Source: Candidatus Collierbacteria bacterium (lineage in GTDB: Bacteria > Patescibacteriota > Microgenomatia > UBA1400 > JACPES01). From it: a stretch of 64,000 nt of DNA. The position numbers and the translations under genes were made by a program. How positions within the stretch are numbered: the first letter of the stretch is position 1; each line of letters begins with the position of its first letter. Where the stretch lies: contig JACRNH010000014.1 in assembly GCA_016219325.1 (NCBI GenBank), forward strand, positions 132 through 64,131, read 5' to 3'. The notes beneath the pieces are model-generated. The model saw nothing but the letters and a program-made list of their open reading frames with translations, was not told the DNA's origin and ran no database searches. This document shows positions 271 to 58,415 of this stretch, piece by piece.

Positions 271-1902
271 ATGGAAAATTGGAATTGGACAAAACTTCTT
301 TTAATTTTTAGTTTTCTAATCTTTTTAGGATCGCTGCTTTTACGCCAAGAAACGGCAATAACGCAGGATTTGGGAAGACATTTAAGATTGGGAGAAATGA
401 TTACCGCCGATGGAGAAGCCGGAAAGTGCGCTCTTTATTCAAATTGCCTGACGTACACTTATCCTGATTATCCGTTTATAAATCATCACTGGGGATCGGA
501 AGTAATTTTCTATCTTGTCCATAAATGGTCAGGCTTTTCCGGAATTATTGTTTTTAAAACAATTATTCTGGGATTGACGTTTATAGTTACACTTCTCCAT
601 TCGCTAGAACTCAATAAAGGCCCGGCCTTTTTAAAAAGGCCGGGCCTTTTATGGCTAGCAATTGCTGTTAGTCTTGTTTTTTTCTCCGTCCAAATGATGG
701 CGGACAGGCTAACTACCCGCCCGGAAATTTTTGGATATTTCTTGTTTTCTATCTTATTCTGGATGCTGAATTCATCGTTTCCAAAACGTCTTTTATCATT
801 GTTTCTTGTTTTCTGCTCATTGCTCATTATTCTGTGGGTGAATTTACACATTTCGTTTGTGTTTGGATTGATACTTATCTGGATTTGGGCAGGGAGCCAA
901 TTATTAGCGTCATTGCGAGGGAGCGACAGCGACCGCGGCAATCTCGGAGATCGCCACGCCCCGCCGCGTCGAACGCGGCTGGGGCTCGCGATGACGGCAA
1001 CGGCGGCGGCGTCTACTATGGCAACTATTTTCAATCCTTCCGGACTCCGCGGAACGCTGATGCCGCTATCAATACTCAAAGACTACGGCTACACCATTGT
1101 GGAAAATATGAATCCTTTTTTCTTGACAGCATTTAAACCACAACCAGAATACTGGATATACATTATATTGTTGATAACGACTATTTTCTTATTTCTTTTT
1201 TCCTCCGCCAAAAAAAATCCTTTTCACCTGCTAACCTTTTTAACTTTTAGCCTTTTCCCTCTTATTGCCGTCCGCCACCTGCCATTTTTTGCGCTTGTAA
1301 TTTCACCTATCTTGGCCCCGTTACTCTTTAGCGTCTTAAAAGGCCCGGCCTTGCTTAGCAAGGCCGGGCCTTATGATGCCCATATTCCGATACTAACTAT
1401 TGGCTTCTTATTATTGACAGCATTTACCAATCCCATTCCTCTTGCCTACGCCAAACTCCCGCCGATAAATCTATCCACAGATTCCCGCCACGATCAGGCC
1501 ATCGAGTTTGTTAAACAAAATAATTTTCAGGGACCGATGTGGAATAACTACGACATCGGCAGTTTCCTGGAATGGGCGATTCCGGAACACAAGACTTTCG
1601 TTGACGGAAGACCTGAAGCATTCCCTGTTGGGTTTTTCAAAAAGACGTATATTCCGATGCAGGAATCGCAGAAAAAGTGGGACGAGGTAACCGCGGCAAA
1701 CGATATCCAGTGGGTGTTTGCGGCTCTGACAGACGCCACTCCGTGGTTTACCAAATGGTGGCAGATGATCCAAAATCATCAGGGTTGGAAGATTGTATAC
1801 ATTGATAATTACAGCACAATTCTGATCCGGACCAACGGCAAAAACAATTTAATTGAACCACAGGGAAAAGCTCGATTATTAAAAACCCTCAATTCGGATT
1901 GA
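271..1902 (+). CDS. Polytopic integral membrane protein (hypothetical). Carries two in-frame 33-34-nt palindromic inserts and a GC-rich insert.
   Basis: 543-aa ORF with many hydrophobic helices. Hairpin inserts at 616-649 and 1340-1372 and a GC-rich patch at about 897-1020 all lie in frame. Confidence 0.6.
   Translation: MENWNWTKLLLIFSFLIFLGSLLLRQETAITQDLGRHLRLGEMITADGEAGKCALYSNCLTYTYPDYPFINHHWGSEVIFYLVHKWSGFSGIIVFKTIILGLTFIVTLLHSLELNKGPAFLKRPGLLWLAIAVSLVFFSVQMMADRLTTRPEIFGYFLFSILFWMLNSSFPKRLLSLFLVFCSLLIILWVNLHISFVFGLILIWIWAGSQLLASLRGSDSDRGNLGDRHAPPRRTRLGLAMTATAAASTMATIFNPSGLRGTLMPLSILKDYGYTIVENMNPFFLTAFKPQPEYWIYIILLITTIFLFLFSSAKKNPFHLLTFLTFSLFPLIAVRHLPFFALVISPILAPLLFSVLKGPALLSKAGPYDAHIPILTIGFLLLTAFTNPIPLAYAKLPPINLSTDSRHDQAIEFVKQNNFQGPMWNNYDIGSFLEWAIPEHKTFVDGRPEAFPVGFFKKTYIPMQESQKKWDEVTAANDIQWVFAALTDATPWFTKWWQMIQNHQGWKIVYIDNYSTILIRTNGKNNLIEPQGKARLLKTLNSD
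616..649. repeat. Intragenic palindromic element, copy 1 (AAAGGCCCGGCCTTT-ttaa-AAAGGCCGGGCCTTT)
   Basis: Perfect 15-bp inverted repeat with a 4-nt spacer. Translated in-frame as KGPAFLKRPGLL. Confidence 0.8.
1340..1372. repeat. Intragenic palindromic element, copy 2 (AAGGCCCGGCCTTGC-tta-GCAAGGCCGGGCCTT)
   Basis: Perfect 15-bp stem with a 3-nt loop. 33 nt, in-frame (KGPALLSKAGP). Confidence 0.8.
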
Positions 1903-1937
1903 CAACCGGTCGGGTTTCAGTTAACCTAGGTGATATT

Positions 1938-2651
1938 ATGCCGGAATCGTCCAACAATAAAAATATTTTAATCGCCCTCCTGGCTGTTGCTGCTTTTTTA
2001 ATCGGATCGCTGTTTACCGAAGTCCGTTATTTAAAAAAATCCGGAAACCAAAATTCTCAAGTTGCCAACACCATCCCGGTTGCTGCTGAAGACAACATTT
2101 CTCCCCAACCGCTTTCTGACTCCGATCATGTTTTAGGAGACCGGAATTCCAGACTGCTATTTATAGAATATTCTGACCTCGAATGCCCGTTTTGCAAACA
2201 ATTCCATCCGACTACCAAACAAATACTAGAGGAATATAAAAATAACCTAGCTCTTGTTTATAGACATTTTCCGCTAGATATTCATCCCAAGGCCAGGAAA
2301 GAAGCCGAGGCGACCGAATGCGCCCGGGATTTGGGCAGTCCTTCTGATTTTTGGAAATTTGTCGATAAAATTTTTGAAGTTACACCGTCCAACAACGGCT
2401 TAAATCCTGACGAACTACCGAAACTTGCTGTCCAAATCGGCCTGAATGAAAATAAATTTAAAGATTGTTTGGCAAGCGGAAAATTCACCCAAAAAATCGC
2501 TGATGATTACGATCAGGGAATTAAAGCCGGAGTTGGCGTCACCCCCAGCAGTGTAATTGTCGATACTAAAACCGGCAAAAGCAAAACCATAACCGGGGCT
2601 GTCCGCCCGGAACAAATTAAGTCCGTTATTGACGCCATGCTGAAGGAATAA
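1938..2651 (+). CDS. DsbA-family thiol:disulfide oxidoreductase (thioredoxin fold), membrane-anchored
   Basis: CPFC active-site motif (SDLECPFCKQFHP) and an N-terminal hydrophobic anchor. AGGTGA lies 8 nt upstream of ATG 1938. The ORF track starts at TTG 1899, overlapping the previous stop. Confidence 0.75.
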   Translation: MPESSNNKNILIALLAVAAFLIGSLFTEVRYLKKSGNQNSQVANTIPVAAEDNISPQPLSDSDHVLGDRNSRLLFIEYSDLECPFCKQFHPTTKQILEEYKNNLALVYRHFPLDIHPKARKEAEATECARDLGSPSDFWKFVDKIFEVTPSNNGLNPDELPKLAVQIGLNENKFKDCLASGKFTQKIADDYDQGIKAGVGVTPSSVIVDTKTGKSKTITGAVRPEQIKSVIDAMLKE

Positions 2652-3305
2652 ATGAATAGACTTCTGAAGACGATCGGTTTTATTCTTCTGCTTGTTGTAA
2701 TCTCCGCCGGCGGAATATTTATCCTGACCCGGAAACCGAAAGCGGTTGAAGGGATAGAAACATTTCCCAGTCAGGGCCGCAATCACGTCCCTGCCGGAAC
2801 TATCGGAGAATATAACAGCAATCCGCCTACTTCGGGACCGCACTACACCCAATGGGAAAAACCGGGAATATACAATAAGGTTCTTCCGGACGGAAACTTA
2901 ATTCACTCGTTGGAACACGGATATGTGATAATTTCGTACGATTGTACGAAATTATCAAACTCAAAACTCAAAACTCAAAGTTCAAAATTTTGGAAGGTTT
3001 TTGCGCATGAAACGGAAGAGATCCATGAAGAACCTCCGGCCACAGATAGCGCTGATGTCAAACCAGATAATATTTCCGGATGGAAAGATAGTCCTGATTG
3101 CCAAAAATTGGTTGATCAGATAAAACAAGTTACCAAGAAAACCGGCATGGACAGGCTGATCGTAGTTCCCAGGCCAAATCTTGATGTCCCAATAGCTATG
3201 ACGTCCTGGACAAAATTGTTGAAACTGAACGACGTCAACGAAGACAAAATTATTAATTTCGTTAAAGAATTCCGGAACAAAGGTCCTGAAAAAACCATGG
3301 AATGA
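2652..3305 (+). CDS. DUF3105 family protein, membrane-anchored
   Basis: PPTSGPH and HSLEHGYVIISY motifs with an N-terminal TM. Contains a heptamer tandem repeat at 2957-2988. Confidence 0.6.
   Translation: MNRLLKTIGFILLLVVISAGGIFILTRKPKAVEGIETFPSQGRNHVPAGTIGEYNSNPPTSGPHYTQWEKPGIYNKVLPDGNLIHSLEHGYVIISYDCTKLSNSKLKTQSSKFWKVFAHETEEIHEEPPATDSADVKPDNISGWKDSPDCQKLVDQIKQVTKKTGMDRLIVVPRPNLDVPIAMTSWTKLLKLNDVNEDKIINFVKEFRNKGPEKTME
2957..2988 (+). repeat. Heptanucleotide tandem repeat (AAACTCA x3 plus a variant) inside a CDS
   Basis: caaactcaaaactcaaaactcaaagttcaaaa, encoding SNSKLKTQSSKF. Confidence 0.75.
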
Positions 3306-3327
3306 CAGGCTTTTTTTCAGGGCGAAT

Positions 3328-3621
3328 TTATCCCAATTCTTTTTCCAGTTTGGAAATCTTAAGCATTCTAAGGATATTCCCGATTAAGACGAAAAGGGAG
3401 AATCCAACTCCGATTGCCAACAACACCAAAGGCAAGTTGGCCGGAATATTCGGCAGGAATTGGTAAAGGACCGGATAAAACATCAGGGCCATAAACACTA
3501 CAAGGATTACCAAAATTGCTTCCAAAGAATAAATAATCTTCTCTAGCCTCAACTGCTGAATCCTAAATTCAAGATTTGGTTTAACCTTAACCGCCGGAGT
3601 TGTAACTGTTTTTCTTGGCAC
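3328..3621 (-). CDS. Small membrane protein (hypothetical), last gene of the metal operon
   Basis: 97 aa with two hydrophobic helices, lying downstream of the ATPase on the same strand. Confidence 0.45.
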   Translation of the reverse strand: MPRKTVTTPAVKVKPNLEFRIQQLRLEKIIYSLEAILVILVVFMALMFYPVLYQFLPNIPANLPLVLLAIGVGFSLFVLIGNILRMLKISKLEKELG

Positions 3622-3671
3622 GAAAATTATTATATATCAAAAAAATCTGCATGCAATAGGAAAAATTAATT

Positions 3672-5771
3672 TTAGACCTCAAGCTTGACTTTTTTTAAGG
3701 CCATGGCGTTAATTACCACAATCACTGAAGACAGACTCATCAAAAACGCCCCTATTCCCGGTGTAAGTTGAAAGCCAAGCGGGATAAATAAGCCTGCAGC
3801 GGCCGGAATCGCCAAAACGTTATAGCCGGTAGCCCACAGTAAGTTTTCTATCATTTTCCGGTAGACTTTTCTGGAAAGGATAACCAGCCTGGCCACGTCC
3901 TCCGGATTGCTGCGGGTTAAAACTACGTCTCCTGATTCAACCGCGACGTCAGTCCCGGCCCCAATCGCCACTCCGGCATTGGCCTGTTTCAAGGCCGGGG
4001 CGTCATTAACGCCGTCTCCCACCATAATGACTATCTCGCCTTTATCCTGAAGGCTCTTAACATATTTATATTTATCGGCCGGTAAGACTTCAGCAAAAAC
4101 TGTATCCATCTCCAGCTCTTTACCCACGTCTTCTGCCACTTGGTGGTTATCTCCGGTAACCATGGCTGCTTTGACCCCTAATCGGTGCAAGCTTTTTATG
4201 GCAGATATTGATTCGGGCTTGATTTGATCGGACAAAGAGATTGTCCCCAAAATTTGTTTCCCGTCGGCAACAAATACTGTCGTTCCCCCACCGTCTTCTC
4301 CATTTACCGAAAGCCCTTTTTCTTTCATTAATCTGAAATTGCCAATCGTATATTTAATTTTCCCAACAGTGCCCTCTATTCCTTTCCCAGCCAAATTTTT
4401 AAAATTGACAACGGACTGAAGAGATACGCCTTTTTGTTTGGCATATTTGACGATTGACAGGCCGATAACGTGAGAGGAATGGACTTCTAGGGAGGCTGCT
4501 ATTTCAATTAAGGCCTGGCCTTGCAAAGCAAGGCCAGGCCTTTTAAGACTTACGATTTTAGTCACCCCGAACTCCCCCTTCGTCAATGTTCCGGTCTTGT
4601 CAAAAATCACATAAGTAGCTTTTTTAATTACCTCTAATTTTCCTAAATCTTTCAGAAAAACGCCGTTTTTAACGGCTAAAGTTGTGGCAATAGTTGAGAC
4701 AGTTGGGATAGCCAAGCCTAAAGCATGCGGACAGGCAATTACCAAAACCGTAATCGCCAAAGTCATGGCAAAAACAAACGGCTGTCCGGCTACCGCCGAC
4801 CAAAAGAACAAAGAAAATAATCCGACCGTCAAGGCGGTAAGGGTCAAAATTCCGGCGGCCTTGTCGGCGATCTTTTGGGCGGTAGGCTTGGTTTTTTGGG
4901 CTTGAGCGATAAGGTTTTTAATCTGGCCTATAGTTGAATTTTCTCCGACTTTATCCAACTTGACTTCCACCGAACCATCAAGACAAATAGCTCCGGCTAT
5001 CGCTCTATCGCCGGTTTTTTTGGATACCGGCCGTGATTCGCCGCTGATATGAGATTCATTAAAGTTGACCGCGCCCTTAATGATTATTCCGTCGGCCGGG
5101 ACTTTCTCCCCAGGCTTGACCAATACTACGTCCCCCTCTTTCAACTCTTCAATATCTATATCTTCTGTTAATTCTGAATTCTGAATTCTGAATTCTGAAT
5201 TAATTATGCGGTGGGCCTGTTTCGGCAACAACTTTGCCACTTCTTTCAGAGCATCGCCGGCTGCAGTAGAAGATTTAGCTTCTAAGAAATGGCCGAATAA
5301 CAACACCCAAATCAGAGTAGATATTTCCAGATAAAATTCGGTTTTAATCGCCGGAATAAATGTTGAAGCGGCGGAAAATAAGTACCCTGAACCGACGGCC
5401 AATGATACTAAAGTCATCATCCCGTATTTCTTAGCCATCCATTCATGGCGGGCATGCTGGAAGAAAATCAGGCTGAAGTAGAAAATGACGGTGGCAGCTG
5501 CAAATTCTAAATAGTTCCGACCGGCGAAATCCGGCATTCCCAGAAACCTAATACCCAGTTTGCTGGTTATCAACAACGGAACCAATAACAAAGTGACGAT
5601 TAAAAATCGTCTCAAAAAATCTCCGGCGGCTTGCGGCCCGGCCATCATGGCGGCGTGATCATGAGATTCATTAGCCTCATGCTGCGGAACTAAATCCATT
5701 CCCCCGCACTTGGGACATTTTCCGGGATGATCCTGTTTAATCTCGGGGTGCATGGGACATGTATAAATCAT
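3672..5771 (-). CDS. copB: Heavy-metal translocating P1B-type ATPase with CPH motif (CopB-like) and an N-terminal CPMHPE...CPKCGM metal-binding domain
   Basis: DKTGTLT, GDGVNDAPAL and CPH (VIACPHALGLAIP) motifs are present. The N-terminus reads TCPMHPEI...GKCPKCGM. Eight TM-like segments. Confidence 0.9.
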   Translation of the reverse strand: MIYTCPMHPEIKQDHPGKCPKCGGMDLVPQHEANESHDHAAMMAGPQAAGDFLRRFLIVTLLLVPLLITSKLGIRFLGMPDFAGRNYLEFAAATVIFYFSLIFFQHARHEWMAKKYGMMTLVSLAVGSGYLFSAASTFIPAIKTEFYLEISTLIWVLLFGHFLEAKSSTAAGDALKEVAKLLPKQAHRIINSEFRIQNSELTEDIDIEELKEGDVVLVKPGEKVPADGIIIKGAVNFNESHISGESRPVSKKTGDRAIAGAICLDGSVEVKLDKVGENSTIGQIKNLIAQAQKTKPTAQKIADKAAGILTLTALTVGLFSLFFWSAVAGQPFVFAMTLAITVLVIACPHALGLAIPTVSTIATTLAVKNGVFLKDLGKLEVIKKATYVIFDKTGTLTKGEFGVTKIVSLKRPGLALQGQALIEIAASLEVHSSHVIGLSIVKYAKQKGVSLQSVVNFKNLAGKGIEGTVGKIKYTIGNFRLMKEKGLSVNGEDGGGTTVFVADGKQILGTISLSDQIKPESISAIKSLHRLGVKAAMVTGDNHQVAEDVGKELEMDTVFAEVLPADKYKYVKSLQDKGEIVIMVGDGVNDAPALKQANAGVAIGAGTDVAVESGDVVLTRSNPEDVARLVILSRKVYRKMIENLLWATGYNVLAIPAAAGLFIPLGFQLTPGIGAFLMSLSSVIVVINAMALKKVKLEV
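4510..4542. repeat. Intragenic palindromic element, copy 3 (AAGGCCTGGCCTTGC-aaa-GCAAGGCCAGGCCTT) within copB
   Basis: Perfect 15-bp stem with a 3-nt loop. 33 nt, in frame (LKRPGLALQGQAL on the minus strand). Confidence 0.8.
5171..5203 (-). repeat. Heptanucleotide tandem repeat (GAATTCT x about 4.4) in-frame within copB
   Basis: attctgaattctgaattctgaattctgaatt on the plus strand; the gene strand encodes INSEFRIQNSE. Confidence 0.85.
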
Positions 5772-6610
5772 TTTTTCCCTATCTTAAATAGTTTGACAGC
5801 TAATAAAATCATTATAATCAGAAAGATAAAATTAAGACCGGGGATTTCTTCGGCAACAGCCGATACCCCGAAGGCCACGTTTTGAATTAATTTAGTGGAT
5901 TCTGATTGACCGGAATCCATTCCCAACAATCCCAGCCTTGTCATAGAAATAGTTGCCAAACCGGTGATTAAAAAAACCGCTGACGCGACTATATTAGACA
6001 CTAACAAATCATATTTCTTACCGAATATATTTATTTCCCCGATTGACTTTCTCATGAGAGGCCGGTCAAGAATATTACGGCTGTCAATAAATGCCGATGC
6101 CAAATAAAGCGGGGCGACCATTCCCAAAACATAAAATGTTCCGACTCCCAAAGACATTAAAATTGTCGGTGATAAAGTCGATAAAGCCATCACTCCGATC
6201 AGTACCGGCGCGCAACACGAGCTGGTAATACCGGAAAAAACTCCCAAGGTGAAGCTGGACCAGACATCAACTTTTCCGGTGTTTTTACGTTGTAAATTAA
6301 TCATCGGCAATTTAATCCCCAACAAAGCAAAGATTGCCAAAATTAATAAAAAAATTCCCCCGAGATAATAAGTTTGGTCATGGAGCCGGAAAAATAACAT
6401 TGATAAGGCTTTGGCTCCCAAAACTACCGGCAACATGATGGAAAAAATTCCCAAGGAATAAATAAATGTCATCAACAGGACCTGTTTTTTCTCTCGGAAA
6501 ATATTTCCGAAATACGACGGCAACAGATAGGTAATACAGCAAGGAGCAAAAAGGGCTACCGATCCGGCAATAAAAGCAGCCAAAAATGAAATTGAGGTAT
6601 ACGCGTCCAT
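5768..6610 (-). CDS. DsbD/CcdA-family integral membrane protein with doubled (vicinal) cysteines
   Basis: FAPCCITYLLP and SSCCAPVLIG sit in positions equivalent to the two conserved Cys of the DsbD transmembrane domain. 4-bp overlap with copB. Confidence 0.6.
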   Translation of the reverse strand: MDAYTSISFLAAFIAGSVALFAPCCITYLLPSYFGNIFREKKQVLLMTFIYSLGIFSIMLPVVLGAKALSMLFFRLHDQTYYLGGIFLLILAIFALLGIKLPMINLQRKNTGKVDVWSSFTLGVFSGITSSCCAPVLIGVMALSTLSPTILMSLGVGTFYVLGMVAPLYLASAFIDSRNILDRPLMRKSIGEINIFGKKYDLLVSNIVASAVFLITGLATISMTRLGLLGMDSGQSESTKLIQNVAFGVSAVAEEIPGLNFIFLIIMILLAVKLFKIGKK

Positions 6611-7576
6611 TTAAGCCCCACAGCTCCCGCCGCGGCTTTGAATCCCCGGGACTCCCTGAATGGCTTGGTTTATCCGGGCGGCGCCCTGGGCGGAAGAATA
6701 ATCTTTGGATAGGGCCACCCGGGGATCGACTTTATCCCAACTTATTCCCTGCTGTTTTTGGAAGTAAACCGCCATTTCAACATATGTATCGGGAAACCAG
6801 AAAGAATTGAGAGCCAGAATGTCTTTATAAATTTGTTTTTCCGAAAGCCCGGCGGAAACAGCAAGTTCAATATAGGCGAGGGCGGCCATGCCGTGGTTGC
6901 AGTCGGGAAAAGCGGTGGCGTTGCCGCAGCAGGGACGGTAAACATTTTCGGCAATTTTTTTGACCATTTCCTGCTGTTGCGGAGTCAAAGGAATAATCTC
7001 TTGACTGCTATAAAGCTCAACCGCGGTTTTTTTACCCAGAGTCCAGCCGCCGGTGGAAGCGAAATTGCCCAATTTGGAGCGGTCGGAAACCATCGGGCCC
7101 TCGTCGAGAACTTTACTTTTGTTGATTAAACCCAGAGCCCATAACAAATTGACTACCAGGCGGGAATTGTTTTCGTTGATAGCGATAGGTTTATTGGAAT
7201 TACCGTTAAGAATGTCAAGATCCGCCCGACCGTCGATATCTGATTTATGGATTTGTTTAAACTTTTCAGCATCAATGGCGCCGGAGTCGACCAGTTTTTT
7301 ACCGATATCTCCCCATTTTAGCGAAGTGACATATCCGCCGGAAGGCAATACTTGAGCGGTGGCTTCTTTGACCAAAAGTTCGGGATTCTTAATTTCCGTC
7401 AGTTGCCGCCGCAGCCGATTTACTTGGCGTCTCATGATCATTTGGTCGGTCAACGCTCCCAACGCTAAAGAATCAATCGTAAATATAATTACCAACCATA
7501 GAGGAACCAATTTCTTAAAAAACTTTATCAGGCGGCCTTGTTTTCTTTTAAATAAAATTTGTTTTAATGTTTTCAT
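6611..7576 (-). CDS. Exported or membrane-anchored Cys-rich protein (hypothetical)
   Basis: N-terminal TM segment, an RPCCGNATAFPDCNHG motif and a C-terminal GGSCGA. Confidence 0.5.
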   Translation of the reverse strand: MKTLKQILFKRKQGRLIKFFKKLVPLWLVIIFTIDSLALGALTDQMIMRRQVNRLRRQLTEIKNPELLVKEATAQVLPSGGYVTSLKWGDIGKKLVDSGAIDAEKFKQIHKSDIDGRADLDILNGNSNKPIAINENNSRLVVNLLWALGLINKSKVLDEGPMVSDRSKLGNFASTGGWTLGKKTAVELYSSQEIIPLTPQQQEMVKKIAENVYRPCCGNATAFPDCNHGMAALAYIELAVSAGLSEKQIYKDILALNSFWFPDTYVEMAVYFQKQQGISWDKVDPRVALSKDYSSAQGAARINQAIQGVPGIQSRGGSCGA

Positions 7577-8064
7577 TTCACAACACTTCCTTTCAGTGTA
7601 AATTCCAGTTTAGGATTATTTTTATCATTGGTTTCAACTTCAATTTGCCTAGTCATCGCGCCTACGCCGGAAGGTCCGTGAAAAGCCGGATCAAATACTA
7701 TTTTCAACTCTGCTTCTTTTCCGGCCGGCACTTCTCCGATCCAAGACGATTTTTGATGCATCCCGAAAAAGGGACTTCCCTTTCCATCGATTATGACTTG
7801 CGCCGTAGTACACATGCAAGAGGTGGAAACGCCGGAAAGTTTTAAGGGTCCAACACCAATATTTTTGATCAAAAACACTTTCTCCGCGTTTCCGCCATTG
7901 ATTTTAATTTCTCCCCAATCGTGATTAGTTTCCCCAACTTCAACCTTAGACTGATCAGATTTTTCCACCGCAACCCCAACCGGCTTTGACAACAACCACG
8001 CCCCCGTTCCCAAAATGGCAAAAGTGATTATCCCTATAACTATAAATACTGTTTTATGTTTCAT
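7573..8064 (-). CDS. DUF1573 domain protein
   Basis: N-terminal TM, HDWGEI, and the CMCTT motif typical of DUF1573. Confidence 0.6.
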   Translation of the reverse strand: MKHKTVFIVIGIITFAILGTGAWLLSKPVGVAVEKSDQSKVEVGETNHDWGEIKINGGNAEKVFLIKNIGVGPLKLSGVSTSCMCTTAQVIIDGKGSPFFGMHQKSSWIGEVPAGKEAELKIVFDPAFHGPSGVGAMTRQIEVETNDKNNPKLEFTLKGSVVK

Positions 8065-8537
8065 TATTTATGTTTATTTACAAATTTGTTCTCGCACCCT
8101 TCGGCGCAAAAATAATAGGTCTTGCCCTTTTGTTTTAAGGCCCTGCCGGCCGTCTTCGGCGACAACCTCATTCCGCAAACCGGATCCCGCACCAAGGGTA
8201 CCATATCTTTCATTTTTAATCTTAACTCCTCTGTCAGGTTTTCATTGCCGCGGTTTTGGCCGATCAACATTTCGCGGATAAGGTCGGACGATTTAACAAT
8301 ATTTTTATGCGACAATTTATAATAAATATTTGTGCCTTTTTTTCTGGTGGTAACCAAATGAAACTCCCTTAATACCATCAAATGCTGGCTTAAATTGGCC
8401 TGCGGCAAGCCCAGCATCTCCACCATCTGGCTAACGGACATTTCCTGATCCCTTAATAAATGAACTATTTCCAGCCGCTTGGGGTTGGATAAAGCGGCGT
8501 AAACATCGGCGTGGAGTTGAAAGATTTGAGAATACAT
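8064..8537 (-). CDS. ArsR/SmtB-family metalloregulator fused to a C-terminal YHS metal-binding domain
   Basis: ArsR HTH (KRLEIVHLL...LSQHL) followed by DPVCGM...YYFCAEGC, a YHS signature. Confidence 0.75.
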   Translation of the reverse strand: MYSQIFQLHADVYAALSNPKRLEIVHLLRDQEMSVSQMVEMLGLPQANLSQHLMVLREFHLVTTRKKGTNIYYKLSHKNIVKSSDLIREMLIGQNRGNENLTEELRLKMKDMVPLVRDPVCGMRLSPKTAGRALKQKGKTYYFCAEGCENKFVNKHK

Positions 8538-12194: not shown

Positions 12195-12488
12195 ATGACG
12201 GAAGGAGGTGAAACATTCATGAAAAAACTTGACGCGCATCAAACAGGGATGGCGCTGGGAGTATTAACCGGCCTTATCCATGCAGCGTGGTCTGCCCTGG
12301 TTTTCCTTGGCCTTTCTAAGCCGCTATTAGACTTTATCTACGGTATTCATTTTCTGTCAAATCCGTTTATCGTCGCCAAATTCAACTTTTCTAATGCTGT
12401 TATATTGGTGATCTTTACGACTGCAGTTGGATATATTTTTGGCGGATTATTCGCCTGGATTTGGAACTGGCTGCACGGAAGAAAATAA
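12195..12488 (+). CDS. Small membrane protein (hypothetical)
   Basis: 97 aa with three hydrophobic segments. GGAGGTG RBS upstream. Confidence 0.4.
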   Translation: MTEGGETFMKKLDAHQTGMALGVLTGLIHAAWSALVFLGLSKPLLDFIYGIHFLSNPFIVAKFNFSNAVILVIFTTAVGYIFGGLFAWIWNWLHGRK

Positions 12489-39088: not shown

Positions 39089-39178
39089 TAACTATATAGT
39101 TACAAGTGACTATATGTAACTATAAAAGAGGATGGATAACGAAAGGATTGTGCATTGATTGTGCATTGATTGTGCATC
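39088..39178. promoter_or_regulatory. Repeat-rich region upstream of serine recombinase 1
   Basis: Perfect 16-bp palindrome GTAACTATATAGTTAC at 39088-39103, an extra GTAACTATA copy at 39116-39124, and three 11-bp tandem repeats GATTGTGCATT at 39146-39178. Confidence 0.5.
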
Positions 39179-39260
39179 AAAAACTGAATAGAAACACAAT
39201 TTGCTTAATTAAATATAATTAGTTATAATTAAGTTTAATTAACTAATTTTAAGAAACAAA

Positions 39261-40850
39261 ATGAAAAATTGTTTCATCTATATAAGGGTTTCGACCGATA
39301 CGCAGGCAACTGAGGGTTACTCTTTGGACAACCAAAAAAGAGCTTGCAAAGAGTACGCAGTAAACAAGGAGTATCACCCAAAAGAGGTATTTGTTGACGA
39401 TGGAAAATCTGGGAGAACCGCCAATAGGCCTGAATTTCAGGAAATGTTGAAGAAATTGAAGGATAAACAGGCAGAGTGTGTCATCATCTACAAAATTGAC
39501 CGTTTTGCCCGTAATGTAACTGATTTTTCAAGGGTGAGAAAAGAATTCATTGAGGCGGGCATTGATTTTCTTTCAGTTATGGAGGGCGACCTAACCAATG
39601 GATCAAGCCTTATCTCGAACATCTTCGCCTCGGTCGCAGAATGGGAATCGGAAGTTAATAGTACCAGAACAATAGATGCTCTGGAACAAAAATTTCGAGG
39701 CGGTTGGCAGCCCACCCCACCGCCGATAGGTTATATGACAGTCGGAGAAAAGAATGAGAGAAAATCGTGCGAGCCAGACCCCTATACCGCTCCCATAATC
39801 AAAGAATTGTTTGAGCTCTACGCAACTGGCAACTACTCCCTATTGGAACTACAAGACTGGTTAAGTCAAAAAGATATTGTTTCAAAAAGCGGGACCATCA
39901 TTGGTCACTCAGTAATCAACAACATCTTGAGGAACCCTTTCTACTACGGTCTTATCCGTTGGCACGGAGTGTCAAAAATAGGTAAGCAGAAACCTATCCT
40001 CAAAAAGGATCTCTTTGACACCTGCCAATATGTTCTAGCTAAGCATCGAAGTTTTTTAATCAGGAAAAGGAAACACGATTTTCTGTTGCGGGGTTTTATA
40101 TTCTGTGACAATTGCGAACAACGATATACCGCCGAGTGGCATTATGATGCCCACAAGCTAAAAAACAGAGGTGGCAAAATTGGCTATTACCACTGTCAGA
40201 AAAGGGATAGGAATGGTTGTTCCGCTCCATATGTGGAAATTGAAGATTTACAGAAGCAAGTTGAAGATCAATTTAAGAAAATGCAGTTCTCGCAAAAGTT
40301 TATCGAGATGGTAGTCGTTAAGACTAAAGAGGCAATGACTGAAGGACGAAGTTATCTTAATAATCAACGAATGCAATTAGTGAACCGTAAGACATCGCTT
40401 GAAACAAAGCGAAACAAGCTTGAAGATTCGCTTCTTAACGAAGCTGTTGATAAAGATACCTACAAGAGGCTCCACGTCAAGATCCAAGACAAAATATACG
40501 CAATTAATGACAGGATTGAAGAACTTGAAGATAAGGCTAATATCGATACCAATCTAATTGAGGAAGTGCTGTCCTTTACAAGGGATATTTACAATACATA
40601 CAAGCAGTCACCCGCATTTCTTAAACGCCACTATTTACGGTTCTTCTTTGAGAAGCTGTATGTCAATAATTGTAAGATTTCTAAAATTGAACCGACCCCG
40701 ATTTTCGCGATACTACGGGAAAATCAAGAGGTTATAATAACGGATAATCAGCTCAAGAAATGGAATGAGTTTAGGACTCTAAGCCTTCTGGGTGAAGAAA
40801 TAGAATATTCAGAAATCATCATGGAACAAACAAGGGAGTTGCTTTCCTGA
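39261..40850 (+). CDS. Large serine recombinase (resolvase/invertase catalytic domain plus recombinase and zinc-ribbon domains)
   Basis: YIRVSTDTQ catalytic Ser motif with the conserved DRFAR motif, a Cys cluster (CDNCEQRY...CQKRD..GC) and a coiled-coil C-terminus. Confidence 0.9.
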   Translation: MKNCFIYIRVSTDTQATEGYSLDNQKRACKEYAVNKEYHPKEVFVDDGKSGRTANRPEFQEMLKKLKDKQAECVIIYKIDRFARNVTDFSRVRKEFIEAGIDFLSVMEGDLTNGSSLISNIFASVAEWESEVNSTRTIDALEQKFRGGWQPTPPPIGYMTVGEKNERKSCEPDPYTAPIIKELFELYATGNYSLLELQDWLSQKDIVSKSGTIIGHSVINNILRNPFYYGLIRWHGVSKIGKQKPILKKDLFDTCQYVLAKHRSFLIRKRKHDFLLRGFIFCDNCEQRYTAEWHYDAHKLKNRGGKIGYYHCQKRDRNGCSAPYVEIEDLQKQVEDQFKKMQFSQKFIEMVVVKTKEAMTEGRSYLNNQRMQLVNRKTSLETKRNKLEDSLLNEAVDKDTYKRLHVKIQDKIYAINDRIEELEDKANIDTNLIEEVLSFTRDIYNTYKQSPAFLKRHYLRFFFEKLYVNNCKISKIEPTPIFAILRENQEVIITDNQLKKWNEFRTLSLLGEEIEYSEIIMEQTRELLS

Positions 40851-50702: not shown

Positions 50703-52850
50703 ATGAATTGGCCAAAAATTGCCGGTGTCAGCTTCCTGATTTTATTTTCAGAGCTTTTGGTTATCAGGCTTTTGGGGACAGAAATCAGAATCTTTGCTTA
50801 CCTAGGAAATCTAACGCTTCTTATGATTTTCCTGGGATCCGGGATCGGAATGTACATTAAAAAAACCCTTCCCTTGTCATGGACCGCTACCGCTTTTTTC
50901 TTGCTGGCGGCTTTAGTTTCAACTTCATATATTTTGCGGACCCCCAGATTTGACGTTAAATTATTTTCCGGAATTTCGGAGTTATTGGCCCCATTGTCCG
51001 AATCGTATGTTTGGCAGTCCTTAAATACATTCAGTAAAACCGGAGCGGTTTTAGGATTAGGGCTGACTTTGGGAATATTGGGATTAACCGCTTTTGGATT
51101 CATGCCGTTGGGAAACTTATTGGGGAAATTATTGGCAAAAGATCCGCATCCGCTGCGGGCGTATTCAATTAATATCGCCGCCTCGCTATCGGGAATGTGG
51201 GCTTTGCAAATATTTTCACTGGGGCAGCTACCGCTGCTATTGGGGCTGACCCTAGTAATTTGGACGCTATTATTTTTGGAAGATAATCCGACTGCCAGAG
51301 CCGTTATTATGGCCGTGGCCGTTGCCACTATTGCCTTAACAATTCCTAAAACAGCCAATCAGCCATACGAAGGCCCGACGACTTTTTGGTCACCGTACCA
51401 AAAATTGACTTTGTCCCTAATCAATAAAACTAAAATCCAACAACCGCCGGGATATTATCTGGAAGTAAATAACGTCGGCTACATGGGCCTTCTTAATTTA
51501 GGCCCCGATCATCAGGCCACTGTTTCGGCCTGGGCCAAAAACAACGATGTTCTATTCCAAGACCAATACTTAATTCCCTACCGGTTTAAGCCTGATCCGG
51601 AGAACGTTCTGATTATCGGGGCCGGCGGCGGCAATGACGCTTACGGGGCGATCAGGGGCGGAGCCAAAAATGTGGACGCTGTGGAAATCGATCCGGTAAT
51701 AGTTAAAATCGGCAAAAAATATCATCCCAATCTTCCGTACCAAAATTCAAGAATTAATTTAGTTACCGCTGACGGCCGGGCGTTTATGGAAAAAACCAAG
51801 AAGCGCTACGATTTAATCGTCATGGGTCTGGCTGATTCTCATACTTTAAGTTCATCCCTGACCAATCTCCGGCTGGACCACTATTTATATACCAAGGAAA
51901 GTTTGGAGAAGGCCAAGCAACTGCTTAAACCCGACGGGATTTTAGTCTTAAGTTTTGAAGTTCCCCGCCGGTGGATCGGGCAAAGACTGTCCAAAACTGT
52001 TGCCGAAGTTTTTGGGGTTACTCCGCTGACTTTTGAAGTCAGAAGCGATGGGGCTTTCGGCTGGGGCGGATATTTCTTCGTGGCTTCCAAAGACCCCGAC
52101 CTGCTCCCGCGCATTCTTAACCAGAATCCTGATTTTGCCAACTTCATCAAAGAACACGAAAGAACTTTCCCCCCATTAACCATTAACTCATCAACTATTA
52201 ACTCATTGTCTGACGATTGGCCGTATTTATATCTAGACTCTCCCCGTTTACCGGTCCTTCATCTGATTATCGCCGGAATTGCCGCGATCGGACTTTTTTT
52301 AGGGAGGAAGATTATCTTTAAGGACACGAAATTTAACTGGCCGATGTTTTGGTGGGGAGCCGGATTTATGTTATTTGAATTTCAGAACATTACTAAATTC
52401 AGCCTGTTGTTCGGGTTGACATGGCAAACTAATATTATCGTGATTTCCGCGGCATTGATTATGATTCTAGGAGCAAATTGGTTGGTGGAAAGAAAAATGA
52501 TTTCTTCAGGGCTTATGTTTGTCGGACTGATGGCAACGCTGCTCATTCAGGCCGTTATCCCGATTAAATTATTTAATACCCTGCCGGATCTTCATAAGAT
52601 ATTGATTGCCGGGACAATTCTCAATCTCCCCTTTTTCTTCGGCGGAGCGGTTTTTTCCGGGTGGTTCAAAAACGCCAAAGACAAAAAGGCGGCTTTTGCC
52701 GGAAATTTATTGGGCAGCGCCGCCGGTGGTTTAATGGAAATGTTTTCATTTCTTTTAGGAATAAAGGCGATTATTTTTATGGCCGCGGCAATTTATGGAT
52801 TGGGATGGATAGCGGCTTCCGGGAAATTTGCTAAGATAATTAAACGATGA
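50703..52850 (+). CDS. Membrane-fused spermidine-synthase-like (polyamine aminopropyltransferase fold) protein
   Basis: TM-rich N- and C-terminal regions around LIIGAGGGNDAYGAI...NVDAVEIDPVIVK...YDLIVMGLADS. Confidence 0.7.
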   Translation: MNWPKIAGVSFLILFSELLVIRLLGTEIRIFAYLGNLTLLMIFLGSGIGMYIKKTLPLSWTATAFFLLAALVSTSYILRTPRFDVKLFSGISELLAPLSESYVWQSLNTFSKTGAVLGLGLTLGILGLTAFGFMPLGNLLGKLLAKDPHPLRAYSINIAASLSGMWALQIFSLGQLPLLLGLTLVIWTLLFLEDNPTARAVIMAVAVATIALTIPKTANQPYEGPTTFWSPYQKLTLSLINKTKIQQPPGYYLEVNNVGYMGLLNLGPDHQATVSAWAKNNDVLFQDQYLIPYRFKPDPENVLIIGAGGGNDAYGAIRGGAKNVDAVEIDPVIVKIGKKYHPNLPYQNSRINLVTADGRAFMEKTKKRYDLIVMGLADSHTLSSSLTNLRLDHYLYTKESLEKAKQLLKPDGILVLSFEVPRRWIGQRLSKTVAEVFGVTPLTFEVRSDGAFGWGGYFFVASKDPDLLPRILNQNPDFANFIKEHERTFPPLTINSSTINSLSDDWPYLYLDSPRLPVLHLIIAGIAAIGLFLGRKIIFKDTKFNWPMFWWGAGFMLFEFQNITKFSLLFGLTWQTNIIVISAALIMILGANWLVERKMISSGLMFVGLMATLLIQAVIPIKLFNTLPDLHKILIAGTILNLPFFFGGAVFSGWFKNAKDKKAAFAGNLLGSAAGGLMEMFSFLLGIKAIIFMAAAIYGLGWIAASGKFAKIIKR

Positions 52851-55749: not shown

Positions 55750-57546
55750 TCAGTCTTTTCGCACCAATTGTTTTAAACGGGCTGCCAGGTGGGACAAGGC
55801 CTGTGGCGGAAGCTTCCCGTCTTTGAGCTGGTTCCTGACCAATTCAGCCTCCAGATCGCGTAAAATCAAGCCTAATTCGCTTTTGGCTTCTTCCGAATCT
55901 TCGCCTTTTAACGGCTGAATTGCGGCCTCATCAAACAGCCCGATTAGTTCTGGCGGCAGCGATTGCCGGAAAATTTTAAAATCTCCGTTTTGAAGTTTAA
56001 TAAACTCTTTCAACAGCTCCATCAGTTTCCTCCGGCCAACCGGCTTCACCCAGTTTAAATCAAAATTCTCCGGCAATGGAAGCTTAAACTGAATTAATAG
56101 CCCCAATAAATAATGGCTCAAAATTTCCGCTCTGCTCATGGCGCTTTCATTACCAGCAGGAGCAACTAAGGATGGAGAAACGTGATTTTGTTTCCAGGCT
56201 GACATTTGGCGCCTGACGGCTTCATCCCTGACTCCCAATCTTTTCGCCAGAATACTCACCCAATGATCCTGTTCAATCGCGTTGCTTATTTCGGACAGCA
56301 ACGGCACCAAAACATCTCCTGCCTGACGTTTGGCCTCGGCTGTATCTTTTCCGAATTTTTCCAAAGTACTTTCGATAATCACCCCATAGGCATTTTTAGA
56401 CTTTTCAACCGATTCTCTCCATTTAGAAGGAGATGATTTGGCCAGTTCATCAGGGTCTTTTTCACTTTCCGGCAAAACTACCGCCCGCGAAGACAAGCTA
56501 TGATGCTCTAAAATCGGCAAGCTGCGGATTAGAGCTTCCTGGCCGGCTGAATCGGAGTCCAGGCAAACAACAACTTTTCTGCCGTAACGGCGGACCAATT
56601 TCACCTGGCCCGAAGTCAATGCCGTCCCTTTCACCGCAACTACATTTTTGATTCCGGCCTGCCAGGAGCTGATACAGTCAAATTCCCCTTCCACTAAAAC
56701 AGCCTCGCCTTTTTTGCGGATATCCTCATGATTTTCAAAAATTCCGAACAGATTTTTTGATTTGCGATAAACCGCGGTTTCCGGTGAATTAATATATTTG
56801 GCTTCTTTAATTTCCGGATCGAGCAAACGGCCGGCAAATCCTAAGATTTGCCCGCGGACGTCCCGCAAAGGAAACATCACCCGGCCGCGGAAACGGTCAT
56901 AGTAAGAATTCTGAATTCTGAATTCTGAATTCTGAATGGCGGAAGATCTGGCTTGTTTGTTTTTATTCAGTATTCGGTATTCAGTATTCGGTATTCTTTT
57001 TATTGCCAAGCCAGATTGCTCAATGTGTTCCGGCAGATAACCCTTTTTGGTTAAAAACTTAAACAGATTATCCCATTGGTTTGGAGAATAACCAATACAA
57101 AACGTCTCAATCGCAGATTTGGTGATATAGCGTGATTTTAAATATTCCCGGGCTTTTCCCCCGGCTTTATGTTTAGTTAAAATATAATGATAGAACTCCG
57201 CCGCCAAATGATTAATTTCAAAAATCTGTTTTTCAATTTGCTGCAACCGGTCGTCAACCGCCCGCCTTTCCAATTTAACTCCGGTTTTTTCGGCTAAAAA
57301 TTCCAGCGCTTCGACGAAGGTCATGCCGTCGTGCTTTTCCAAAAAAGTAAACACGTCGCCAGCCGCGCCGCAGCCGAAGCACTTAAAAATTCCCATTTCC
57401 GGGGAAACGGTAAAGCTGGGGGTTTTTTCAGAATGGAACGGACATAGGCCTAAAAATCGCCGGCCGCGCTGTTTCAAGGCAACTTTTTCGCCGATTATTT
57501 GCGCAATATCTACCCGGGATTTTATCTCCGCTACCTGATCGGACAT
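55750..57546 (-). CDS. dnaG: DNA primase DnaG with a repeat-encoded insertion in the linker
   Basis: Zinc-ribbon CPFHSEKTPSF...CFGCG and TOPRIM VLVEGEFDCIS motifs. Two heptamer arrays at 56907-56996 encode NTEYRIL...NSEFRIQNS. Confidence 0.9.
   Translation of the reverse strand: MSDQVAEIKSRVDIAQIIGEKVALKQRGRRFLGLCPFHSEKTPSFTVSPEMGIFKCFGCGAAGDVFTFLEKHDGMTFVEALEFLAEKTGVKLERRAVDDRLQQIEKQIFEINHLAAEFYHYILTKHKAGGKAREYLKSRYITKSAIETFCIGYSPNQWDNLFKFLTKKGYLPEHIEQSGLAIKRIPNTEYRILNKNKQARSSAIQNSEFRIQNSYYDRFRGRVMFPLRDVRGQILGFAGRLLDPEIKEAKYINSPETAVYRKSKNLFGIFENHEDIRKKGEAVLVEGEFDCISSWQAGIKNVVAVKGTALTSGQVKLVRRYGRKVVVCLDSDSAGQEALIRSLPILEHHSLSSRAVVLPESEKDPDELAKSSPSKWRESVEKSKNAYGVIIESTLEKFGKDTAEAKRQAGDVLVPLLSEISNAIEQDHWVSILAKRLGVRDEAVRRQMSAWKQNHVSPSLVAPAGNESAMSRAEILSHYLLGLLIQFKLPLPENFDLNWVKPVGRRKLMELLKEFIKLQNGDFKIFRQSLPPELIGLFDEAAIQPLKGEDSEEAKSELGLILRDLEAELVRNQLKDGKLPPQALSHLAARLKQLVRKD
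56907..56937 (-). repeat. Heptanucleotide tandem repeat (GAATTCT x about 4.4) in-frame within dnaG
   Basis: gaattctgaattctgaattctgaattctgaat, identical to the array in copB. Confidence 0.85.
56965..56996 (-). repeat. Heptanucleotide tandem repeat (ATTC[A/G]GT x about 4.5) in-frame within dnaG
   Basis: attcagtattcggtattcagtattcggtattc. The gene strand encodes NTEYRILN. Confidence 0.8.
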
Positions 57547-58329: not shown

Positions 58330-58415
58330 GGAGGAGTGTGCCGAATGGTAAGGCACCGCTCTCGAAAAGCGGCGGGCGCAAGCCCTTGCAGGTTCGATTC
58401 CTGTCTCCTCCGCCA
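58330..58415 (+). tRNA. tRNA-Ser(CGA), class II with a long variable arm
   Basis: GGAGGAG/CTCCTCC acceptor stem, 3-bp D-stem, CUCGAAA anticodon loop, GGGC-GCAA-GCCC variable arm, TTCGATT T-loop, and an encoded CCA. Confidence 0.85.

Follow-up and report, generated by a model that had tools for sequence, protein, structure and literature searches.

A heptanucleotide tandem array in the DUF3105 gene of a Candidatus Collierbacteria genome and its counterparts in the Microgenomates

The DUF3105 gene and the heptamer arrays of the window

Within the window, meaning the whole 64,000-nucleotide stretch of Candidatus Collierbacteria DNA that was analysed, the DUF3105 gene (Table 1) was located in a region (1899–8537) with the gene order DsbA-like thioredoxin, DUF3105, a 97-aa membrane ORF and a CopB-type P-type ATPase; the syntenic locus L087 additionally has an ArsR/YHS-domain protein. 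The DUF3105 protein is 100% identical to a Candidatus Collierbacteria protein at NCBI, with an N-terminal helix at residues 2–25 and with H45, H64, H85, H89, C98 and C150 as invariant residues. The neighbourhood and the invariant His and Cys residues suggest an extracytoplasmic metal or redox role. The Pfam match of this protein is broken into two stretches, which flank the region of a tandem array.

The initial annotation had described this array as three in-frame copies of AAACTCA and a variant within a DUF3105 gene, a description borne out by TRF, the exact run, the ORF and Pfam, with the quoted string starting at 2956. TRF reported a period of 7, 4.4 copies and 87% matches to the consensus AAACTCA at 2957–2987 of the forward strand, and the exactly periodic part extends over 23 nt (2957–2979). 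The array translates in frame to S102–K112, SNSKLKTQSSK(F), the same peptide that had been read there before. The window has three runs of 20 nt or more with an exact period of 7, as against 0.0 per shuffle in 200 dinucleotide-preserving shuffles, while the expected number of occurrences of the 21-mer of the array, allowing up to three mismatches, was 0.02. A chance origin is therefore excluded. By definition the array is a long SSR (LSSR), namely a head-to-tail unit of 5–11 nt with a length above chance, having 4.4 copies and runs beyond those of the shuffles. The array was also present in an independent Logan assembly, in a contig (L001) with the same sequence as the window. A known structured RNA family was rejected as an identity for the array on the basis of an Rfam scan of the whole window, in which no covariance match at gathering score was obtained at or near it, the sole match being a tRNA at 58330–58412.

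The array lies in a variable loop between C98 and C150. In the alignments, the spacing of these two residues was C-x(4-8)-C in non-CPR or short orthologs and 30–60 residues in the Microgenomates, the first 11–13 residues of the Microgenomates insert being heptamer-derived and followed by a conserved (V/A)(Y/F)AHE motif. An AlphaFold2 model obtained with 112 sequences had a mean pLDDT of 87, with values of 49–59 and no secondary structure at residues ~101–140. From this low pLDDT and lack of secondary structure, the array-encoded segment is predicted to be part of a disordered, structurally permissive loop. A Foldseek search of the model against the PDB gave no significant match, with a weak thioredoxin-like resemblance at E above 0.1.

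The arrays that had previously been noted in copB and dnaG are real and perfect, each of 32 nt with AATTCAG as a different unit, and a second array (GAATACY) was detected in dnaG. AATTCAG is on the coding strand in both genes, and the arrays have an identical core of 31 nt, 51 kb apart, which was found in none of 99 other loci. These 31 identical bases would branch a k=31 assembly graph, and Logan contig L001 terminates within the copB array (positions 4550–4577 of L001). At this site, ordinary P-type ATPases are ~8 residues shorter than the CopB of the window. The CopB proteins of Collierbacteria relatives, with 76–87% identity, were found to have different units at this one site: AATTCAG in the window, ACAGAGA in L087 (37 nt, perfect) and AAGGAYG in L002 and L088, the last of which also occurs in the DnaG of L099. 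The two dnaG arrays together make up an insert of ~25 aa, which was seen in the window and a few close relatives only; most Microgenomates DnaG orthologs are without it. Elsewhere in the window, an intergenic perfect 11-mer array (GATTGTGCATT x2.9), also of 32 nt, was observed at 39146–39177 and is followed by an AT-rich 10-mer array (39206–39242) just upstream of an ORF starting at 39261.

Table 1. Coordinates of features in the window, and heptamer units at the DUF3105 array site in the window and in close orthologs
Feature	Position	Strand	Content	Basis or remark
GC-rich palindromes	616-649, 1340-1372, 4510-4542		perfect, ~33 nt, two copies of AAGGCCNGGCCTT each	
DUF3105 gene	2652..3305	+	217 aa	Pfam DUF3105, E 4e-27
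Hairpin	2926..2957	+	perfect, 14 bp, TGATAATTTCGTAC gatt GTACGAAATTATCA	adjoins DUF3105 array
Variable loop C98-C150	2946..3098	+	both cysteines invariant	alignments, AlphaFold2
DUF3105 array units	2957-2977 / 2978-2984 / partial	+	AAACTCA x3 / AAGTTCA / AAA(TTTT)	TRF, exact run
copB array	5170..5201	-	(AATTCAG)x4.6, perfect, 32 nt	encodes NSEFRIQNSEL
Weaker degenerate array	52173..52207	+	CCATTAA-like, 75% matches	715-aa spermine-synthase-domain ORF
dnaG array	56906..56937	-	AATTCAG x4.6, perfect, 32 nt	TRF
Second dnaG array	56964..56996	-	two-variant (GAATACC GAATACT) = GAATACY	TRF
DUF3105 site, window			AAACTCA	
DUF3105 site, L082			(AAACTCG AAATCCG)x2	
DUF3105 site, L083			TAATTTT	
DUF3105 site, L084			TCAAAAC	21 nt (3 units) longer
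DUF3105 site, L085			AAAACAG	
DUF3105 site, L086			CCTTCGG	
DUF3105 site, L002			GGCCTTT/AGCCCTT	

Array sites in orthologs and tandem repeats in the lineage

An ortholog comparison, as had been proposed for DUF3105, revealed differing residues and different heptamer arrays at the same site. Close orthologs (65–80% protein identity) were compared at the DNA level and have different units at the same codon positions and with the same length, L084 being longer (Table 1). Among distant orthologs, AAATTCA, AATTTCG (perfect, 33 nt), AAATTTC, CCATTTT, AGTCGTC, CAGGGTA and others were present, and in 23 of the 46 insert-bearing orthologs period-7 autocorrelation exceeded the 99th percentile of the background. 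Related units were often found in related orthologs (window, L082 and L084; L086 and L002), which fits descent with modification. In a tree constructed from the conserved parts of DUF3105, the same families of units also turn up in branches far from one another. The peptides encoded at the site are chemically unrelated (KLKTQNS, LIFNFKF, PFGLRPS and ETMSKKQ, for example), and the whole array segment was rarely lost (P0018 and P0020).

The reading frame was intact across the array in 77 of 78 testable DUF3105 orthologs. In L077 (4796–4830), 23 nt are missing relative to L101 (1254–1320) between flanks that are 100% identical, and the frame is shifted. The deletion is located inside a 9-mer array, (RRGTAYCAC)x4.4, of the DUF3105 gene of L077 and is not a multiple of the unit; it may reflect either true variation or faulty assembly. 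No unit-multiple length polymorphism was detected in near-identical strains, L077 and L101 being the only such pair, and a metagenome scan for strain variants of the DUF3105 gene of the window gave one close relative, L088. It was also observed that two short GC hairpins, TCCCGCAGAGCGGGA and TCCCGCTTCGCGGGA, replace the heptamer array in L087 (1964–2040) and L088 (512–590), with a total length about that of the array replaced.

The persistence of array sites was determined systematically by taking each good coding array, finding its orthologs among the loci and measuring the aligned DNA. For 64 array sites, period-7 autocorrelation was above the 95th percentile of the background at 50% of 1092 orthologous sites and above the 99th at 36%, and the array region showed no net difference in length in 313 of ~730 alignments at 45% identity or more. 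Both counts are non-independent, with several sites in one ortholog family, but the behaviour is a general one. The DUF3105 array site is shown to be old and common to orthologs, with a unit sequence that changes and a position and approximate length that are kept. Lineage-specific array insertions were also seen (L011 at 8147 and L017 at 13070), and a search of ortholog length differences for a ±7 aa signature gave no more than weak bumps at 6–9 aa. Within a genome, the units of different loci resemble one another more closely than do units from different genomes: identical pairs within a record numbered four (0.93 expected, P 0.017) and pairs with at most one mismatch 18 (8.4 expected, P ~0.002), some of these within-record pairs being neighbouring arrays. 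No enrichment was found once the units had been letter-shuffled, preserving their composition. The copB and dnaG arrays of the window are the clearest case of such sharing.

Three loci in 64 kb had been taken as a sign of a general property of the genome and not of a single accident, and this was upheld by a census of the window and 80 other loci (1.18 Mb). These loci came from a scan of species-representative genomes with the DUF3105 alignment and are mostly Microgenomates/Patescibacteria MAGs, with a few Chloroflexi. Exact runs (20 nt or longer, with 2.5 copies or more) of period 7 numbered 38, in comparison with ten of period 8, three of period 9, one of period 11 and three of period 14, and there were none of periods 2–6, 10 or 12 in the 1.18 Mb. 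At a TRF score of at least 40, 105 arrays of period 7 and 51 of period 14 were detected, the latter being two-variant heptamers, together with 22, 20 and 30 arrays of periods 8, 9 and 12, respectively. The heptamer arrays total ~154, with a length mode of 31–33 nt (4.4–4.7 copies) and a few near 53 nt, and a two-variant ABAB pattern was present in a third of arrays. Their density in CPR loci is ~1.3 per 10 kb (~130 per Mb), and none were found in 63 kb of Chloroflexi/Spirochaete loci carrying DUF3105. The census supports the conclusion that period 7 dominates the tandem repeats and that this is a property of the Microgenomates lineage, beyond the genome of the window.

The units are diverse and A-rich on the coding strand, with 61 different units among the 76 CDS arrays, and this lack of a single recurring motif argues against a sequence-specific element. 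A wider scan had been expected to show enrichment within CDSs; the excess of period 7 was confirmed in the 1.18 Mb, but not the enrichment, as 76 of 103 period-7 arrays (74%) lie within stop-free spans of at least 120 codons while long ORFs account for 88% of the DNA. The density of arrays is thus ~2.6 times higher in the remaining DNA than in long ORFs, a difference expected under purifying selection. The orientation that avoids stop codons is present as had been stated; however, it is no separate property, since survival inside an intact ORF requires a stop-free frame and the orientation is therefore a filter. Of the 27 arrays that lie outside long ORFs, 14 have a unit with stops on both strands, a classification that is partly circular, and some arrays there have stops in all six frames. 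Among arrays that cannot be coding, six of nine are 27–33 nt long, the numbers being small.

Two intergenic cases were recorded in the census. A perfect array of TTACTGA x15 (107 nt) is present at 12463–12569 of L036. Heptamer arrays with different units occupy one shared intergenic position in L035 (10461–10493), L044 (4566–4662) and L047 (2686–2787), with DUF3105 on one side and on the other a conserved gene of 108 aa that starts with MAD, so that orthologous persistence holds for non-coding arrays too.

Viral contigs were scanned with AATTCAG, AAACTCA and a composition-matched control heptamer, and each was found arrayed in 6–15 contigs of very different G+C content, many of the arrays being ~32–35 nt in length. 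Two AATTCAG arrays apiece were found in contigs L104 and L106. The formation of ~32-nt arrays by the control heptamer in unrelated viral contigs indicates a generic repeat class, and AATTCAG was accordingly rejected as a special widespread element, the numbers for AAACTCA and the control being similar. In one viral contig of 62% G+C (L102, 5255–8696), eight related 8-mer arrays (CAATCACC / GGTGATTG / ATTGAGCG) of ~4.5 copies each lie within 3.5 kb. The 4.5-copy architecture thus extends beyond CPR and to periods other than 7.

Origin and maintenance of the arrays

Heptanucleotide repeats have been reported to be the most abundant class of long SSRs in most prokaryotic genomes, and it was proposed that slippage is favoured because the stretch with which the polymerase interacts is ~7 nt long (Mrazek, Guo & Shah, 2007, as cited in PMC4679880 and PMC4692102). 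As they are described there, prokaryotic LSSRs are like the Microgenomates arrays in their tandem 7-nt units, the excess of period 7, the diversity of units and the slippage origin proposed. Unlike LSSRs in these accounts, 74% of the Microgenomates arrays are in frame in conserved genes, some of them essential, and the arrays, at ~4.5 copies, keep their position and length across distant genomes while the unit changes. A literature search found no paper that describes such arrays in CPR bacteria or the Microgenomates as LSSR-rich.

The array is probably a heptanucleotide LSSR in a permissive loop, kept periodic by misalignment and in frame by selection, with the peptide as a by-product. Recurring strand misalignment in replication or repair would keep the array periodic, and a point change in one unit would spread to the other units or be lost from them, amounting to concerted evolution. 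Outcomes with a frameshift or stop would be discarded by purifying selection, and the survivors would have ~1+3k copies (the 31–33 nt mode, or the few arrays of ~53 nt) and a stop-free orientation. With every unit translated in each of the three frames, a single base change would, once homogenised, alter three residues, making this segment of the loop hypervariable between species. No specific protein, RNA or regulatory function need be assumed. By itself, the DUF3105 array is ordinary for the Microgenomates lineage.

Some observations are left over by the LSSR explanation, namely the length-preserving homogenisation, the 4.5-copy mode and the likeness of units within a genome, which are unexplained by it. 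A slip of one unit puts the gene out of frame, and yet essential genes such as dnaG retain perfect arrays whose length is conserved; homogenisation must therefore be length-preserving, for example through paired events or conversion-like misalignment. The ABAB pattern hints at two-unit steps. The 31–33 nt mode may also apply to non-coding arrays, on small numbers, and selection for frame alone would not explain it there. The recurrence of the same unit families in distant DUF3105 branches also speaks against the LSSR explanation, as does the finding that L077 and L101 differ by a length that is no unit multiple.

If ordinary misalignment is the cause, the arrays provide a natural system, in tiny genomes, in which to measure length-preserving homogenisation and the cost of frameshift-prone repeats, and they would account for some of the hypervariable segments and lineage-specific loop insertions by which CPR alignment and annotation are made difficult. 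Practically, the arrays break k-mer assemblies, as in L001, and create spurious low-complexity peptides in protein databases. Purging of non-triplet microsatellites from coding DNA is to be expected; here an entire CPR class has retained non-triplet arrays at fixed sites of essential genes, the periodicity being perfect while the units change. Such lineage-wide, position-conserved, unit-variable arrays in coding DNA are worth following.

Heptamer repeats are also described as families of a single motif, such as the STRR of cyanobacteria (Calothrix) and GGGAATC/GGGGAYT in Xanthomonas and Nostoc (PMC4692102), and the TAACTGA repeats of Beggiatoaceae, cyanobacteria and Bacteroidetes (PMC4679880). 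These families resemble the Microgenomates arrays in being tandem heptamers with few copies per set and many sets per genome, and in varying in length and sequence between related species at the same (in their case intergenic) positions. They consist of one or a few fixed motifs and lie mostly between genes, in many cases immediately before a start codon, whereas the Microgenomates arrays have dozens of unrelated units and are mostly inside ORFs. Membership in a single-motif family was rejected for the arrays given the 61 units in 76 CDS arrays and the 76 of 103 arrays in long stop-free spans; the intergenic L036 array does resemble the TAACTGA type. The protein tandem repeats of Borgs (PMC9879509) are likewise fast-evolving, perfect in-ORF repeats in disordered segments. 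Their units are multiples of three with a variable copy number, whereas in the Microgenomates the unit is 7 nt, the copy number is nearly fixed and the unit varies; with its 7-nt unit, the DUF3105 array was not assigned to this triplet-unit (aaTR) type.

A tentative and rather doubtful alternative is that the conserved proteins of the Microgenomates contain hundreds of heptamer cassettes of fixed site and fixed length, and that it is not ordinary slippage but a length-preserving process, for example ectopic conversion or templated resynthesis, that rewrites their units concertedly and partly genome-wide. With similarly low probability, a dispersing or templated process would write or rewrite the arrays as cassettes, with genome-specific units and re-used sites. 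Candidates for it are ectopic conversion from one array to another, a mobile element of very small size, and a template-dependent polymerase that fills a tract of ~32 nt by copying a short template repeatedly. The identical AATTCAG core, which copB and dnaG share over a distance of 51 kb and which the 99 other loci lack, is consistent with this, as are the within-record likeness of units (P 0.017 and P 0.002), which goes beyond composition, the swapping of unrelated units at one site with a length of ~32 nt unchanged, and the paired AATTCAG arrays of L104 and L106. AAGGAYG in the CopB of L002 and L088 and the DnaG of L099 would also point in this direction if these loci came from one genome. 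Some of the within-record pairs are neighbouring arrays. Rewriting as cassettes is opposed by the diversity of units (61 in 76 CDS arrays), by the related units of related orthologs, which fit descent, and by the similar abundance of control heptamer arrays in viral contigs. As regards a mobile element, only the AATTCAG array is duplicated, and neither terminal inverted repeats nor target duplications nor shared flanks were seen at its copies in copB and dnaG; the likeness of units within a genome is nevertheless enriched. The analysis yielded no enzyme or template as a candidate. Length-preserving cassette rewriting, if true, would be a mode of coding-sequence hypervariation not described before.

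Selection at the level of the protein, in which a flexible linker of fixed length or a peptide with a period of seven residues is maintained and the DNA periodicity is incidental, is improbable. It would agree with the conservation of site and length across deep divergence, with the predicted disorder of the loop and with the rare loss of the whole segment (P0018 and P0020). However, no peptide property needs a 7-nt period in the DNA, the peptides at one site are chemically unrelated, and arrays of the same type are present outside long ORFs, some with stops in six frames.

Contingency loci such as the tetra- and heptanucleotide SSRs of Haemophilus influenzae (PMC2651432, PMC8262952) share with the arrays non-triplet units that shift the frame. 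Phase variation, by which gain or loss of one unit would switch the gene off or on, is very unlikely for the Microgenomates arrays. A change of one unit does shift the frame, 7 not being divisible by three, and L077 is frameshifted inside its array while the 100% identical strain L101 is intact. The L077 deletion of 23 nt is, however, not a multiple of the unit, the frame is preserved in all but one of the 78 testable DUF3105 orthologs, and the arrays, unlike those of contingency loci, have a low copy number (~4.5) and lie mid-gene in essential or housekeeping genes (dnaG, copB), their orthologs being almost always in frame. Membership among contingency loci was rejected on these grounds, no unit-multiple variants having been seen and the arrays lying in dnaG, copB, DUF3105 and many conserved housekeeping proteins, whereas contingency loci are placed in or upstream of surface, restriction-modification or other dispensable adaptive genes. 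Chance, or an assembly or sequencing artefact, has practically no probability even though L001 ends inside the copB array and such repeats disturb k-mer assembly, since shuffles give no such runs, the array is in the independent L001 assembly and arrays occur at the same sites, always in frame, in dozens of independent assemblies.

Hairpins and palindromes

The hairpin at 2926–2957 adjoins the DUF3105 array, its left arm encoding the conserved VIISY and its right arm, the reverse complement of the left, encoding CTKLS. Its predicted RNA fold has an energy of −20.7 kcal/mol (z −4.2). Hairpins in the same register with a changed sequence were found in L087, L082, L030, L020 and L004, and covariation was weak but above controls, with 60% of cells paired as against 55.8% when shuffled and 31–48% when slid. 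This hairpin may be a trace of foldback template switching. Array-adjacent hairpins were rejected as a general rule, as the excess of stems of at least 9 bp (3.9% vs 0.7%) is modest and largely due to the DUF3105 site itself.

Rickettsia palindromic elements and the small dispersed repeats of Nostoc are in-frame insertions of tens of nucleotides in conserved proteins, usually in loops, and are defined palindromic sequences copied around the genome. The Microgenomates heptamer arrays differ from these in having no common sequence or termini, and the three GC-rich palindromes of the window (Table 1) fit this description better than the arrays do. All three are in frame in ORFs, two of them in a 543-aa membrane protein and one in copB, where the palindrome is an insertion of 30 nt (10 aa) that is absent in the 86%-identical ortholog of L087. 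From their sequences, these palindromes look like a small family of in-frame palindromic insertions distinct from the heptamer arrays, and the AAGGCCNGGCCTT motif was also found in L002, L087 and L088.
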